Assembly (NCBI GenBank): GCA_964016885.1 | Contig: OZ024752.1 | Location: forward strand, 24,242,001-24,306,000 | DNA: 64,000 nt | Reading direction: 5' to 3' | Origin: Eledone cirrhosa | Lineage: Eukaryota | Shown here: one piece after another, positions 12,636 through 61,581 of the stretch | Layout: every line of letters begins with the position of its first letter | Position numbering within the stretch: position 1 is the first letter of the stretch | Made by a program: the position numbers and the translations under genes | Notes under the pieces: generated by a model | Databases searched by the model: none | Seen by the model: the letters and a program-made list of their open reading frames with translations, nothing else | Told to the model about the DNA's origin: nothing

Positions 12636-12815
12636 CCGGGTTGAATCGGGGGTAACCACAGTAAGTAAGGTACTCAATACATGGCAGAGTATAATTATTT
12701 AATATAGAAATCGCTTCTACAGGACTAGAACAGTTTCATTTGGAAGAAATCATCAGAAATCTTCCTGATGATTTCTCCTTAATCAAACAGTTCTAGTCCT
12801 GTAGAAGCCATTTAT
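12636..12815. mobile_element. Short palindromic Penelope-pLTR-like island with back-to-back hammerhead motifs
   Basis: Inverted arms 12709-12759 and 12761-12813, flanked by (TA)n/(CA)n. Each arm reads CUGAUGA..(G/C)AAA C(A/U)G-uucuaguc-CUG UA GAAG. Confidence 0.7.
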
Positions 12816-12824
12816 ATATATATA

Positions 12825-12944
12825 TAGAAAACTCGCCAGACAGTCCTATGCGAGCAAGACAACCACTCTTGCCTCAGGTGGGAAAACCCCCGTCCAAACC
12901 CATGCAAGCGTGGAACAGGGACGTTAAACGATGATGATGATGAT
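12825..12944 (+). mobile_element. RTE family 3'-terminal stub (~120 bp)
   Basis: Matches 5341-5469, has the (GAT)n tail and sits inside (TA)n. Confidence 0.9.
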
Positions 12945-12955
12945 ATATATATATA

Positions 12956-13963
12956 TACTAGCTCTTTCAATTGCGCAGAGGGTTCTATAGAAATAGTGGA
13001 CAGCTTCCGTTACCTGGGTGACAAAATCAGCAGTGGGGGAGGGTGCTCTGAAAGTACAGTAGCTAGAGTCAGAACTGGATGGAAAAAGTTCAGAGAGCTT
13101 ATACCACTATTAGCCGCTAAAGGGTTCTCCCTAAAAATGAAAGGCAGGTTGTATGATGCCTGCATACGAACAGCAATGTTGCATGGCAGTGAGACCTGGG
13201 CATTGTGTGCAGAGGATATACGCAGACTAGAGAGGAACGAAGCTTGCATGCTCCGCTGGATCTGTAATAGTAATATACGTGAACGGCAAAGCATAAACGA
13301 ACTAAGGAAAAAATTAGAAATAAGAGGGATCAGATGTTGTTTACTCGAGAGAAGGCTACGTTGGTATGGTCACGTGATGCGCATGAAAGACAACAGCTGT
13401 ATAACAAAGTGCAGGGCAATAAAGATAGACGGTAGCCACGGAGTAGGCAGACCCAGAAAAACCTGGGATGAGCTGATAAATTCCGACCTCAAACACTTAC
13501 ACCTCTCCAAGACAATGTCACTGGACCGAGACCTTTGGCGGTACTCAGTAATAGAGAAAACCCGCCTTACCTAAATACAAAGTAAAACCTACTACAGTCA
13601 GTAGGCATCTCTAACAAAATACACCCCCGTCCCACCACCCCCACCCCATCCACACCGCCCCTTTCAATGTAAAGTTATGTTGGTGCCACAACATCCAGGC
13701 TGAAACAAATAAGATCGTGTAGGTGTCACGACAAAAAAACACACAGTCCACGCTGTAATGTGGCCGTGTAGGCAACACGGTAAAAACCTCCCAAACCCAC
13801 ACTGTAAATGTGGTTGGTGTTAGGAAAGGCATCCAGCTGTAGAAAACCCGCCAGACAGTCCTATGCGAGCAATGACAACCACTCTTGCCTCAAGTGGGAA
13901 AACTCCCGTCCAAACCCATGCAAGCGTGGAACATGGACGTTAAACGATGATGATGATGATGAT
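12956..13963 (+). mobile_element. RTE family 5'-truncated copy (~1 kb)
   Basis: ORF 12996-13574 is near-identical to the C-terminus of copy 1. Full 3' UTR and (GAT)n tail present. Confidence 0.93.
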
Positions 13964-14639
13964 ATATATATAGACTAGTATTCAAGTGTTTAGGGTGAGA
14001 CCGATAACATGGTTAGAACTCATTGAAGAGATGGTTTCAACAAGATTGGGTGGTGAAAGTTATAGTTTTTGTAGTAGGATCTCATAACATAAGGTTTCTT
14101 CTAGAGTTACAGAGTCATTTATATATATGTGTGTGTTTTGAACAATGAAAATAAAACTAGAGACAAAGATATGTTCTTAATTAGTTCATTGTTTTACGAT
14201 CATTTCAGAGGTTTGATTGATCATGGAAGATTGATATATTGACACACAGGTAGTTGTCATGTCACTAACTATTTCTAGTCTCAAAATCCCTGATCAATCA
14301 CACCGTATCTATATATTGATTTACCATGATCAATCAACCCTCAGGGGGTGACTTAGTGGTGAAACAGCACAGTAGATAGAGCTATTAACCCTGTAGCATT
14401 TACATTACTCTATATTTACTATTATATTTTCATGCTAAAGTCTTTATTTCACATAATATTGAATCTATGAGACTTTGATAGTACTTATTTTGAGGACAAT
14501 ACATTTACATCAATATGATAAAGGGTTAAAGACAAGTGACAGGCATGGAAAGACTGAAAAAAGAGAGAAGCTAGAAGACAGGTATACATAACAGAGAGAG
14601 AGGCTGAAAAAAGAAAGTTTGCCAATGTCTTGAGACATG

Positions 14640-57649: not shown

Positions 57650-60600
57650 CAAACAAACAAATTAACAACACACCAAAACAATTAAAACCATCTACTCTCG
57701 CCTCTACATTTTTGCTTAACGCCCAAGGCATCAGCCCTTCCACCAATACTCAAAAATGGAAGATCAAATTCCTGGAGGACTGGATTGATGTCCATCCAAA
57801 CCACATCCCTTTCTTCGTCCTCACTGAAACCCATCTCAGTAACCTCCACTTGGAAGCCGAGGTGAAAGTGAAAAATTTCAAAGCCATCCGTGCTGATCAC
57901 GCTGGCAGAAGAAAGGGCGGGACTGCCATTTATGTCCATAATTCTTTCTCAACAGAGGCTATGAACATATTCACTAATGGATACTGTGACGCAGTCACTG
58001 TATTCAGTCAAACCAACAACCTAATAGTAGTTGGGCTCTATAGGCCACCCCAAACGCCTGTACCATGCTTCAAGGAATGCCTCAACAGCATAAAGTGTTT
58101 CATCCAAGAGTGTCACCCTGACAACATCTTAATGATGGGGGACTTCAACCTCCCCGGAGTTGACTGGTCCACAAACAGCCTGCCACCAGGTTCTTCTGCC
58201 TCAACCTCTGACAGGGAAGCAGTGGAATCGCTTCTTGACTTCATGGATGATTTCTTCCTATCCCAACTGGTGCTCGAACCAACGAGGTGCCACAAAAACG
58301 TCCTAGACTTAATTTTCAGCAATCACACTGACAATATCCACAATATTGCAGTGGAGAAAACTCTACTCTCTGATCATGACATGGTTCTCTGTGATCTGAG
58401 ATTCCACCGTCCAATATACAAACCCAATGTCATCTCTCCTGTCCATCCGTTTGACGCTATGGATTTCCACAATGCAAACTGGGAAGCGATCAGTCATGAT
58501 CTTGCACATGTCGACTGGTCCTTCACGCACACTCATACACCCACTAACATCAAAAAGTCCTGGCAGACATTTGTGGACACTGTTACAAACATATGTGCAA
58601 CACACACCCCATTAAGAACTATAAACAAATCTAAGAGCAGAATCCCTAGAAATAGAAAAAACGCTCATCAGAAAAATTAAGAGAACGAACAAAAAAATCA
58701 ACAAGCTGAAATACTGTCAGCAGCAACACATCAACTTGACTGACATTTCATCACTAGAGATTAAAAAACATAACCTCCAAAACAACATAATGTCCCTCAT
58801 CAACAATCAGAGAAGAGCTGAAGAGGCCTGGGCCGTTGAGAAGATCAAACTCAATCCCAAAGTGTTCTTTTCATTTGCAAAAAAACACAAAATCACTGGC
58901 TCTACTGTTGGCCCTCTAATTGATGAAAATGGCACTCTTCAAGACAATGCTAAAACCATGGGTGAGATACTGCAGAAACAATACTGCTCTGTTTTCAGCA
59001 ATCCTGATATGGCCGATCTGGGCTGTATCGGCGATGTTACTCCCCATTACACCTTATCGGACATAACGTTTGGCACCCCTGATGTCTTAGCGGCAATAAA
59101 GGAAATCAAGCATAATTCAGCAGTAGGTCCCGATAGGTTCCCTGCTTGTGTCTTGAAGGCGTGTCAACACCAACTTGCATCTCCTCTTGCCAATCTGTGG
59201 CGGAACTCACTGGATGCTGGATATGTGCCAGAAAACCTTCTATCCCAGTCTGTTGTCCCAGTTTTCAAAAAGGGAAACAAATCCCTTGCCGTGAATTACC
59301 GTCCAATCTCACTCACCTCTCATATCATTAAGGTATTTGAGAGAGTGGTGAGATCGCGAATGACCCACTTCCTTGAGAGTAACAATATGCTGAACTCCAA
59401 CCAGCATGGATTCCGTAATGGAAGGGATTGCCTGACGCAGTTACTGCATCACTTTGATGACATTTTGAGAGCCTTGGGAGAGGGTTCCAACACTGATGTT
59501 ATCTACCTTGATTTCAGCAAGGCCTTTGACAGGGTTGATCATAACATTCTACTGAGAAAGCTGTCCAATATTGGTGTCACTGGAAAGCTGCTGCAGTGGA
59601 TCAAGAGCTTCCTGTCAAATAGAACCCAACATGTTGTAGTTGAAGGAGTCAAATCCAGCCCAGCCAAAGTCAGTAGTGGGGTCCCACAAGGCACTGTGTT
59701 GGGCCCACTTCTCTTCATCATCTATATTAATGACATCACTGACATCATCAAACACAGCAACATTAAAATTTTCGCTGATGATTCCAAGCTCCAAAAGGTC
59801 ATCAATGGCGTGGATGACCAGATAAGCCTTCAGTCAGACCTACTGGCTGTTACCCAATGGGCGGAAAAGAACAACATGTTACTGAACGAAGACAAATTCG
59901 AACTGATCCACTTTGGAAAAGAGGATGCTCTGAAACTCCCGTACTCCCTTCCCTCCGGGGAAACTCTCGTGGCATCTAACAACATCAGAGACTTGGGAGT
60001 AACCGTGGACAGCAACATATGCTGGGCCACGCATATAAGCAGCAAAGTTGACATGGCCCGCAGAATGTGTTCCTGGATCCTCAGAACCTTCCAGTCGAGA
60101 GATTCCCACACCATTATCCTTCTCTTCTCTACTTTTGCCCGACCACACCTTGAATACTGTTGTCCACTGTGGTCTCCCCACACGAAACAAAGTATCATGA
60201 AACTTGAAGCTCCTCAAAGGGCAATCACGAAAAAGATAGATGGCATGTCAGACCTTGACTACTGGGGTCGACTAGAAAACCTGAAACTTTACTCACTCCA
60301 ACGTCGCCGTGAGCGTTATATTATCTGCATGATGTGGAAAATGTTCCATCATCACTGCCCAAATGATGTTGGCATCGCCTTCAAGATACACCCAAGGCTT
60401 GGGCCCCGTGCTATCCGTCCCATTCAAAAATCTAAATCGCAACTCATAACAACAATACGGCACAATTATTTCACCTCAATCGGCCCTGCTCTCTTCAACA
60501 TCACACCAGGACACGTCAAAACAGAAACTGACCACACAAAATTCAAGAAGTCTTTGGACAAATTCCTCCAAGTAATCCCGGACAAACCACCCACACCCGG

Positions 60601-60658
60601 ATATGTCTCCGCAAACAGTAATTCTCTTCTCGAATGGGCCATGGTGCCCAAATCCTGA
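57637..60658 (+). pseudogene. LINE ORF2 (APE + RT), one frameshift near 58660
   Basis: APE (LLNAQGI, LTETHL, YRPP, GDFNLP, LDLIF, SDHD) and RT (YLDFSKAFDRV, GVPQGTVLGP, FADD). The shift falls in an A-run. Confidence 0.88.
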
Positions 60659-61280
60659 ATTGAAAGACATCGCCAGGTGGTGCTATTAAGTTAGACATGG
60701 CCTGGGCCAATACTGGCCAAAACATTTCAAAGTTATTCAAAGTTATATATATATATATACATATATATATACATACATATATATACATATATATATATGC
60801 ATATATATATATATATATATATATATATATATATATATATATATATATATATATATATATATATGCATATATATATATATATATATATATATATATATAT
60901 ATATATATATATATACATATATATACATACATATATATATATATATATATATATATATATATATATATATATATATATATATATATATATATATATATAT
61001 ATATATATAAACGGAAAAAATGAAACGAAATTTCATTTCCCACTCTTAATACGGCTGTGACTTAAATATAAGTATGTACACGTACATACATATATGTATA
61101 CAGACGTACAGTAGTATGTATATATATATATATATACATATATGCATACATATATATATGTACATATGGATTCACCGAACATTTGTTATAATGCTCGGTG
61201 TGTTTGTAAACAAACATCCCGTATTAAGCCGTAGTGTCCAGCAACCATCGTTGCTCGTTTGTTCAACACTGACAAAGGAA

Positions 61281-61321
61281 CGCTGTACTAGTTTCAAGCT
61301 TATTAGCTATCGTCAGCAACG
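61281..61321 (-). ncRNA. Minimal type-I hammerhead ribozyme motif, canonical core
   Basis: CGUUG-CUGACGA-U AGCU aaua AGCU U-GAAA-CUAG-UA/CAGCG, inside a non-coding island (~61010-61445) bounded by (TA)n. Confidence 0.8.
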
Positions 61322-61581
61322 TATACCTTCCTGCCTGATTGTTGAACGGCTTATATATGTTCTACGGTTCTTATATATTTGAAATATATTTATCCTTATC
61401 GAGCCCTCTTTGGATTTTAGTCTTAAAATGTATTATTATTACTATATATAAATATATATATATACATATATATATATATATATATATATATATATATATA
61501 TATATATATATATATATATATATATATATATATATATATATATATATATATACATATATATATATATATATATATATATAA

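Follow-up and report, generated by a model that had tools for sequence, protein, structure and literature searches.

Metazoan Penelope-like elements (PLEs) have been described as carrying minimal type I hammerhead ribozymes in their pseudo-LTRs (Cervera and de la Pena 2014, PMC4209133). In that description the motifs form many families per genome, include a U3-A8 core variant, combine a short helix I (2 bp in Drosophila virilis Penelope) with a long helix II and a palindromic helix III, and occur as opposite-strand pairs and mostly as truncated single copies. Hydra-clade PLEs (Craig et al. 2021, PMC8557442) are about 3 kb long, have a C-terminal GIY-YIG domain, RWK, DKT and a CxCX5C linker without CCHH, carry a hammerhead, target (TA)n and leave inverted 5'-truncated copies, with a tail often at one end only. 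The non-LTR retrozymes (Cervera and de la Pena 2020, PMC7229834; Li et al. 2026, bioRxiv 10.64898/2026.07.22.740005) are low-GC non-coding tandem monomers with one type I hammerhead each, for which a PLE origin has been proposed; their U.U at the base of helix II is known from PMC7229834 and PMC3088659. For the Poseidon PLE of Anolis in vitro (Frangieh et al. 2024, PMC11167929), both strands of an AT-rich target are cut and extended, two internal start sites define the tail and the hammerhead is unnecessary for insertion. The elements described below share the features given for the first three systems and the two internal start sites of the fourth. A recent octopus repeat annotation makes no mention of ribozymes, and elements of this sort may therefore lie unnoticed in repeat libraries.

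We compared these systems with a window of 64,000 nucleotides from Eledone cirrhosa (contig OZ024752.1, positions 24,242,001 to 24,306,000), in which a first-pass annotation had named 16 hammerhead motifs and four fragments in islands between (TA)n tracts and had ascribed them to many families of non-autonomous, PLE-dependent RNAs. The positions of all 16 motifs and all four fragments are correct. We think it likely that the islands are the 3' ends of PLEs, together with short non-coding tandem units using the same machinery, inserted by two-ended priming. The kind of element is already known; it is unusually dense in this animal genome.

The motifs of the window are real hammerhead-ribozyme motifs as identified by sequence, their cleavage being predicted. 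An intact motif was defined by a C3-G8 or U3-A8 core with at least 4 bp in stem I and in stem II. By this descriptor nine of the 16 named motifs are intact type I hammerheads (30692-, 31085-, 32112+, 34022-, 34560+, 36915-, 37473+, 50923+ and 61281-, with 32112+ counted despite one palindrome mismatch), and CUGANGA/UUGANAA and GAAA boxes, A15.1-U16.1 and H17 are found in 9 of the 16. The other seven, which the annotation had also read as type I folds, are weak, mutated or core variants: a fold-back trims stem I of 12714- to 3 bp, 12761+ has C for G12, 48636- has A for G5 (CUGAUGA is present in other copies of its family, G), in 40444-/41449+ the core reads CAGAAGA, position 4 being A, and a hairpin replaces the palindromic helix III, and 51443-/54657+ have 2 and 0 contiguous core-adjacent base pairs in stem I. 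Intact hammerheads are seen in other genomic copies of families A, G and T. The predicted pairing probability of stem I is 0.63-0.96 in the nine intact motifs, compared with 0.07-0.22 in family F. Helix III palindromes differ by family and include CCGG, CUAG, CGCG, GUAC, CAAUUG, UGCGCA, UAUAUA, UGAUCA, CACGUG, CGAUCG, CUAAUUAG, CUACGUAG and others.

The search with a relaxed descriptor that the annotation had proposed separates the motifs clearly from shuffled controls. Strict matches number 8 in the window, against 1 across 40 block dinucleotide shuffles, and 37 in forty systematic 10-kb pieces of the genome (400 kb), against 0 in 10 shuffles and 0 in the reversed sequence. With the palindrome rule dropped, 62 matches are found in 464 kb, 45 of them perfect palindromes, and the shuffles give 1-4 matches each. 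A descriptor requiring the 10.1-11.1 pair recovers 2 motifs only, and the hammerhead is absent from the 150 listed of 153 matches of an Rfam search at E<=1. Covariation, also proposed as a check, is seen in the J/O/P group, where 10 of 14 pairs vary on both sides, a result matched by 0 of 500 shuffles, in rows chosen by the descriptor and so biased toward covariation. The (TA)n niche is borne out: 23 of 26 sample matches have a (TA)6+ tract no more than 300 nt away, compared with 33% of background positions, in a count leaving out 11 matches of one tandem array. As to the claim made for most islands, a hand count over the non-coding islands at 12.6 kb and 30.5-61.5 kb gives half a motif or more in 12 of 19, but an intact one in only six. 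The flanks, described as largely unrelated, are so in general, except that families C and D are 73-75% alike and the piece at 39135 is 74% like 30692. We estimate a genome density of 92 motifs per Mb from the 400 kb samples (95% interval 35-178), compared with 125 per Mb in the window, and extrapolate to 1-5 x 10^5 motifs in the 3-Gb genome. Since the genome samples also show about 90 motifs per Mb, the window is typical of the genome and is no special hot spot.

Families F, G, H, T and I are the pseudo-LTR 3' ends of coding PLEs, mostly of the Hydra clade, present in the window as 5'-truncated copies. At least five coding PLE families are thus among the window's own, four Hydra-clade or Hydra-like and one Neptune/Nematis-type, each with its own hammerhead in the pseudo-LTR. 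ORFs combining a reverse transcriptase with a C-terminal GIY-YIG domain lie at fixed distances from the F, T, G and H hammerheads. The four were assigned from motifs read by eye, as defined for Hydra in PMC8557442: RWK, DKT and CxCX5C in H; RWI and DKT in G, where the CxCX5C linker was not seen by eye; and CxCX5C without CCHH in F and T, whose translations were read without the N-terminus. The 3' end lies at a TA tract in 62 of 70 arms of F, 34 of 42 of G and 90 of 104 of T.

Family F has a 3' end at 40337..41519 (long arm -, short arm +) with motifs at 40444-40494 (-) and 41449-41499 (+), and a long 3' end at 61353..61440 (+), which lies head to head with family J in one of only three cross-family junctions seen. 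Its CAGAAGA core is fixed: A occupies position 4 in 18,743 of 18,927 matches, with the other core bases and the stems present, and can also pair over the GAAA box. This A4 places the family outside the type I core box, and no A4-core hammerhead family of this kind was found in literature searches. The family G hammerhead at 48636..48702 (-), G5A here, belongs to the pseudo-LTR of a coding Hydra-like PLE (11,095 motif matches). Another G insertion, at 38014..38181, consists of 3' ends only, with a long (-) and a short (+) arm head to head, both beginning at the base after the predicted cleavage site. A general pile-up of 5' ends at that site, an idea taken from 38143 that would have pointed to past cleavage in vivo, was rejected, as its 5-nt bin holds 6 of 222 arms and does not exceed its neighbours. 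Family T (62,608 matches) lies at 49288..49477 as the 3' end of a coding Hydra-clade PLE; the breaks of both its arms, short (-) and long (+), fall within stem II of a U3-A8 hammerhead. F and T both rank among the commonest families. A CUGANGA-based pattern gave only 54 scattered matches for the motif at 49286, and a reading of 49286 as a non-hammerhead piece with the true motif upstream was rejected, since 5 of 30 loci show a full U3-A8 motif that includes it. The family H hammerhead at 50923..51040 (+) is intact, has a CAAUUG palindrome and sits in the pseudo-LTR of a 3.0-kb coding Hydra-clade PLE (912 matches, 3.0-kb spacing). Family I (2,158 matches) is a young coding PLE at 51336..54846 with an inverted 3' arm, motifs at 51443- and 54657+ (U3-A8 core, CCGG, very weak stem I) and a 5'-truncated ORF at 52687-54042 (-). 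Its stem I has 2 contiguous pairs, a mismatch and 2 more, with almost none across the 29 loci listed. A 777-aa ORF of this family has an RT domain, GxKF, DKG, a CX2-5CxxC linker and CCHH in the C-terminal GIY-YIG, and its relatives carry PF00078 and PF01541; from these motifs it is classed as Neptune/Nematis-type, the two being not told apart.

Families C/D, E and J are assigned from sequence features to non-LTR retrozymes carried by PLE machinery, being non-coding tandem monomers with one type I hammerhead each and a GC content under 45%. For C, the tandem status is taken from spacing alone (544 bp from 31582 to 32126). The inverted, partial-tandem C insertion at 31024-32386 holds an intact hammerhead at 31085..31164 (-), with C.A at the base of stem II and the palindrome CUAAUUAG, a fragment at 31582 and a + copy at 32112..32191 with one palindrome mismatch. 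Family D, with a 524-bp monomer, has intact inverted partners at 34022..34104 (-) and 34560..34642 (+), and the C/D motif has 12,089 matches. Family E (591-bp monomer; 7,502 matches by pattern search) likewise has intact inverted partners, at 36915..37004 (-) and 37473..37562 (+), with a U3-A8 core and the palindrome CUACGUAG. The intact family J hammerhead at 61280..61322 (-) is a canonical short type I motif with U.U at the base of stem II and CUAG (monomer about 422 bp; 9,385 matches). Family O is also a non-coding tandem unit. The tandem units repeat every 524, 591, about 422 and 311 bp; the longest Met-ORFs of the monomers are 30-93 aa, and their predicted circular folds lie 3.8-8.9 SD below shuffles. 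No sequence links C/D, E or J to any particular coding PLE.

Families A and B have long unique upstream sequence, with no short tandem period in the places listed. The head-to-head inverted pair of A at 12636..12819 contains two damaged hammerheads (short stem I in 12714-, G12C in 12761+), and its 22-nt motif has 32,838 exact matches. The B hammerhead at 30692..30729 (-), in the island 30547-30943, is intact with a U3-A8 core and an ACCGGU palindrome (13,904 matches). A degenerate B-like motif at 39094..39170 (+) has GCAA in place of GAAA. The mutated 5'-truncated fragment at 36330..36430 (-) has a CCAUGG palindrome and misses the first box; a fuller motif sharing this palindrome is found at another locus, L215.

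The inverted pairs follow a strict geometry. Same-family junctions account for 113 of 116 head-to-head junctions, and 61 of 62 classifiable pairs consist of one long and one short 3' end, most of them from loci chosen non-randomly by family patterns near the start of one contig. The two ends occur at about 1:1 (T 42:41, F 29:29, G 16:18, I 13:15, B 6:6), and family J shows a single 3' end class within the reference used. They correspond to two fixed internal sites, which lie downstream of the ribozyme cleavage site by 16-240 nt and are separated by 34-153 nt; in the tails as folded, no motif or fold common to both ends was seen. Partner arms are closer than non-partners in T (0.056 versus 0.109), G, L and E and slightly closer in A and B, but not in F (0.067 versus 0.070). 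In the integration that we propose, the GIY-YIG nuclease would cut both strands of (TA)n, and each DNA end would prime reverse transcription at one of the two sites, the distal site serving one end and the proximal site the other, mostly on a single RNA or in a single family-pure particle. Two prematurely stopped cDNAs would join head to head, almost every insertion would deposit one or two hammerheads, and the flanking (TA)n would give new targets. The high density would arise because priming starts just downstream of the ribozyme, most copies stop early and the flanking (TA)n is re-targeted.

By analogy with published families, the ribozymes probably cleave as dimers via the self-complementary helix III, which in tandem units would free monomers that circularise. 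Work by Lunse et al. in 2017, cited in PMC6765202, reportedly dealt with PLE hammerhead dimers. The predicted minimum-energy folds of monomers often trap the first core box by pairing with helix III, which would fit dimer activation and would equally fit inactivity, and cleavage may be dispensable for coding elements. It is unlikely, in our view, that the hammerheads are for the most part relics, their folds retained as structures for protein binding or as template structures and cleavage being of minor importance. Such a role would suit the multiplication of F, with its A at position 4, to about 19,000 motif copies, the near loss of stem I in I, the lack of a 5' end pile-up at the cleavage site and the hammerhead-free Naiad PLEs described in PMC8557442; however, the core boxes, A15.1-U16.1 and H17 are common to about 30 clusters despite differing stems and palindromes, and the C3-G8 to U3-A8 switch among these clusters would be meaningful only for a catalytic fold.

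The pairs might instead form by snap-back, in which one end is primed and the cDNA folds at a hairpin and copies itself to an internal TA-like site, yielding the short arm, with the long-plus-short rule a product of repair. This would account equally well for junctions within one family, for shared private variants and for the long-plus-short rule; 5' breakpoints cluster at hairpins (stem II in T, about -50 in F) and short ends show TA microhomology in the element. We nevertheless regard it as quite unlikely, as in several pairs the short-end arm reaches farther upstream than the long-end arm, which self-copying cannot give; in family I, for example, the ORF lies in the 51336 arm and none in the 54846 arm. 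The three cross-family junctions and the purified PLE protein, reported to use both start sites and extend both strands (PMC11167929), also favour two-ended priming.

The annotation's own version is that nearly all families are non-autonomous RNAs dependent on one or a few coding PLEs. Of the 11 families in the window, only C, D, E and J are shown to be non-coding tandem units, and O is of the same kind. For A and B, no coding partner was found in four chosen stretches and no ORF link upstream. As a general account it is improbable, refuted for F, G, H, T and I by the fixed distances to their own RT-endonuclease ORFs, F and T being two of the commonest families. Trouble is known to arise where inverted repeats adjoin long microsatellites, but it is extremely improbable that the pairs are artefacts, in TA-rich DNA, of assembly or of fold-back in the library, as the arms diverge by as much as 15%, terminate at two sites specific to the family and obey the long-plus-short rule. 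Inverted structure is also typical of PLEs (PMC8557442).

Taken jointly, the results can be read, tentatively, as a set of self-cleaving RNA motifs that exceeds in density and variety any yet described from an animal (2-4 x 10^5 copies, at least 30 families). Each family's helix III palindrome might then be a family-specific dimer code, and a PLE protein dimer might use one RNA twice, at two fixed sites, filling a (TA)n break at both its ends; family F would either cleave with an undescribed A4 core or show the in vivo spread of a PLE by the ten thousand with a locked ribozyme. The genome offers a large library of natural hammerhead variants missed by Rfam. For PLE integration, long-plus-short pairing and same-family junctions constrain steps left open in vitro, and natural products are there to be counted by the thousand. 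The one genome also supplies a natural series, made up of F (fixed A4), I (stem I almost absent) and sister families with intact motifs, for asking if cleavage is required of PLE hammerheads.

Part of what the annotation had thought undescribed is published, namely the palindromic helix III, U3-A8 core, opposite-strand pairs and (TA)n targeting, but a comparable density, like the A4 core and the strict long-plus-short rule, was not found in literature searches. Compared with the hammerheads described in PMC4209133, helix III here usually retains a 4-8 nt palindrome, and the base of helix II is a symmetric C.A or U.U in several families, in place of that account's 5' bulge before G10.1-C11.1. 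The A at position 4 of family F was not met in that account, which gives 2,000-9,000 motifs per genome, compared with the 1-5 x 10^5 estimated here. Few Hydra-clade families are described in PMC8557442, whereas several with 10^3-10^4 copies each occur here; the tails are 61-83 nt (up to 153 nt in tandem units) compared with 30-40 bp there, and the long-plus-short rule is counted here. Relative to the published retrozymes, the units described here, known from DNA alone, have 311-591 bp monomers and PLE-type twin 3' ends at (TA)n, and several unrelated families occur together. The axolotl, with 126,247 motifs in about 28 Gb (PMC7229834; bioRxiv 10.64898/2026.07.22.740005), is some 20-fold sparser. 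Finally, the in vitro start site of the Poseidon PLE is reported without a strand difference (PMC11167929), whereas the genomic pairs here use different sites at their two ends.

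The first-pass annotation had described hammerhead motifs in most non-coding islands between the (TA)n tracts, and these motifs are real and lie far above chance. Our descriptor combines a first box with C3-G8 or U3-A8, GAAA, U16.1-H17, and stems I and II of at least 4 bp each, where one base pair at the foot of stem II may be unpaired. With a palindrome required, it finds eight motifs in the window versus one match in 40 shuffles; in a genome sample of forty 10-kb stretches at preset positions, 37 strict matches are spread over 13 of the 40 stretches, versus none in ten shuffles. 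Dropping the palindrome rule adds 32112+ in the window, together with one chance-looking match inside a LINE ORF. Nine of the 16 motifs named at first are intact by the descriptor; the remaining seven are two damaged copies of family A, the motif at 48636 (G5A), two copies of family F with the core box CAGAAGA, and two copies of family I in which stem I is almost absent. The fragments at 31583, 36377, 39135 and 49286 are genuine pieces. An Rfam search of the window gave no hammerhead among the matches listed.

The hammerhead-bearing islands of the window fall into families A–J and T, several of which are tied to Penelope-like elements (PLEs). In G, the PLE ORF begins 144–168 nt after the motif in four loci, and the motif lies about 1 kb behind the ORF end in five. 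The motif follows the endonuclease end by 845–924 nt in F (six places) and by 720–727 or 1,195–1,201 nt in T (five places), and that of H recurs at 3.0-kb spacing with a PLE ORF in between. G, F, T and H do not fit retrozymes. Wherever the regions were seen, the proteins of F, G, H and T carry RWK or RWI, DKT and CxCX5C, with no CCHH, and these marks match the definition in PMC8557442 of the Hydra clade, which carries hammerheads and inserts into (TA)n. The named relatives of the window PLE protein are bivalve or bivalve-associated records with 46–50% identity, which makes a molluscan source likely; the repeat landscape is possibly that of an octopod. Family I has a linker of the Neptune/Nematis type and is young, since identity is 99–100% in every one of its 94 scored matches, many of which hold an intact 777-aa frame. 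Its 3′ UTR carries its own (TG/TA)n microsatellite of 500–700 bp (51805-52356, 54039-54343), which varies among copies and so has spread along with the moving element. In some genomic copies (L031, L020), a one-base difference makes the RT frame continuous with the frame upstream of it (947+ versus 777 aa), hinting at a possible frameshift between ORF1 and the RT ORF. Another coding PLE family, with 3′ ends at 38353-38719 and at L068:3978-4630 elsewhere in the genome, gave no hammerhead with the descriptor. Further coding families at genomic loci L050:3908, L057:1634, L063, L080, L141, L182 and L218 have hammerhead-like motifs with a non-palindromic 4-nt helix III loop.

The tandem families C/D, E, J and O (O, like L and P, is not one of the window families) fit non-LTR retrozymes. 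The monomers measure 524 bp in D, 591 bp in E, about 422 bp in J (469 in the folded copy) and 311 bp in O; they hold no long ORFs, and their predicted circular folds are well below shuffled sequence. C shares its motif with D, and its copies in the window are spaced 544 bp apart. A tandem array of D monomers extends over about 90 kb of contig C4 (18.61-18.70 Mb, L003-L006). The proposal that the islands are non-autonomous holds for four of the 11 window families, the tandem, non-coding C, D, E and J, and fails for F, G, H, T and I, which are tied to PLE ORFs; A and B are assigned to neither group.

The window lies on contig C12 and, besides the islands and many (TA)n tracts, contains a long satellite, a set of Helitron-like ORFs and reverse transcriptases of LINE type. 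An RTE-like LINE that encodes a PHD finger internally lies at 2196-4949, 45727-47995, 61580-63725, 12825-12960 and 39504-39685; its 3′ end runs through (GAT)n into (TA)n, and short 3′ pieces likewise form islands in TA tracts, so that a second retroelement class may share the (TA)n niche. An island at 49731-50010 between TA tracts is inverted head to head with a perfect 45-bp hairpin; it lacks a hammerhead, and nothing in the 400-kb genome sample matches it. By eye, the Helitron-like element (5492-11300) has broken minus-strand Rep and helicase-like frames, with a 57/69-bp tandem array within its 5′ ORF. The degenerate 9.5-kb satellite at 20902-30410 has a 27-bp ACC-rich unit and is open on both strands in Pro-rich or Gly-rich frames.

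The 3′ ends follow a distinct rule. Among 533 arms (5′-truncated element copies) first mapped, each family has two fixed 3′ ends adjoining (TA)n, a distal (long) and a proximal (short) one, at a ratio of about 1:1; the exception is J, with a single end class within the reference used. A larger set comprises 219 sequences and 627 arms, with three sequences excluded as window copies and most loci picked by family patterns near the start of contig C1. Here, 113 of 116 head-to-head junctions join arms of the same family, and the 66 pairs in which each arm ends at TA divide into 61 long+short, one short-short, no long-long and four with one unclassified end. In T, G, L and E an arm lies closer to its partner than to non-partner arms; in F it does not. 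By inspection, the tails of T, A, G, L and F share a short GAG-Y-R-C-like word, located in the stretch that separates their two 3′ ends. At L152:1-900, a short T arm and its flanking TA tract form three tandem repeats, which may be a sign of DNA-level secondary amplification.

The two 3′ ends, the long+short rule and the (TA)n target are observed; from them we infer steps of cutting, priming and joining. The simplest reading is two-ended priming, in which (TA)n would be broken by cutting and both break ends would then prime reverse transcription, each at a different one of two internal sites, on a single RNA or within a family-pure particle. Snap-back copying, the main rival, would replace the two-ended priming. 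In the part of PMC11167929 considered here, the PLE in purified form both cuts and extends the two DNA strands in vitro and uses two internal start sites, which bound the tail, and its protein is a predicted dimer; in PMC8557442, likewise in part, Hydra-clade copies often carry the tail at just one of their ends. Initiation just downstream of the ribozyme and an early stop of most copies would leave one or two motifs per event.

The palindromes are predicted to form self-duplexes with energies between −4.8 and −12.9 kcal/mol, and in many predicted monomer folds the first core box is trapped against helix III, as would be expected of dimer-activated ribozymes. In F, position 4 is A in 18,743 of 18,927 matches, and A4 lengthens a predicted hairpin covering GAAA; U4A is not among the natural variants, including U3-A8, U4C and U10.1-U11.1, in the list seen from PMC3088659. 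The 5′ ends of the larger arm set show no concentration at the predicted cleavage site. Together, A4 in F, the near-absent stem I in I and the dispersed 5′ ends argue against a needed role for cleavage. For the PLE of PMC11167929, the part considered describes the hammerhead as unnecessary and as cleaving only when protein is present.

One or two hammerheads left per insertion would account for the high motif density. Bootstrapped over stretches, the strict density is 92 per Mb (35–178), or 68 per Mb (32–108) when a single 311-bp tandem array holding 11 of the 37 matches is collapsed; without the palindrome rule the bootstrap gives 130 per Mb (68–215), about 5 per Mb of these by chance. The samples extrapolate to roughly 1–5 × 10^5 motifs in the assembly of 2,996 Mb. 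Exact motif matches number 32,838 for A, 13,904 for B, 12,089 for C/D, 7,502 for E, 18,927 for F, 912 for H, 2,158 for I and 9,385 for J, with 11,095 for G (query just downstream of the ribozyme) and 62,608 for T (mostly cut inside it), and 0 in each reversed-sequence control; these counts and the sample-based total agree in scale. A looser scan of 955 kb, run with no shuffle control, gives 202 motifs in 33 clusters, some single-member ones possibly by chance. Of the 62 matches obtained when no palindrome is required, 45 have a perfect one, and its sequence varies widely among them. Covariation in the J/O/P group is seen as changes on both sides of 10 of its 14 pairs with an invariant core, in a test that leans toward structure since its rows are descriptor matches. 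Schistosome repeats may attain a similar hammerhead density.

In the main texts of the literature on PLE hammerheads and retrozymes, we found no report of such density, no family with a fixed A4 and no counted long+short end rule; the part of the octopus repeat annotation considered (PMC13282606) does not mention ribozymes. As far as the parts considered extend, PMC4209133 already describes PLE hammerheads with U3-A8, palindromic helix III, many families and opposite-strand pairs, at 2,000–9,000 motifs per genome, PMC7229834 gives about 5,000 retrozymes in mussel and 126,247 in axolotl, and a 2026 preprint (bioRxiv 10.64898/2026.07.22.740005) proposes that retrozymes derive from PLEs. The window system is a very dense new instance of these already known element kinds, and its interest rests on the long+short end rule and on family F.
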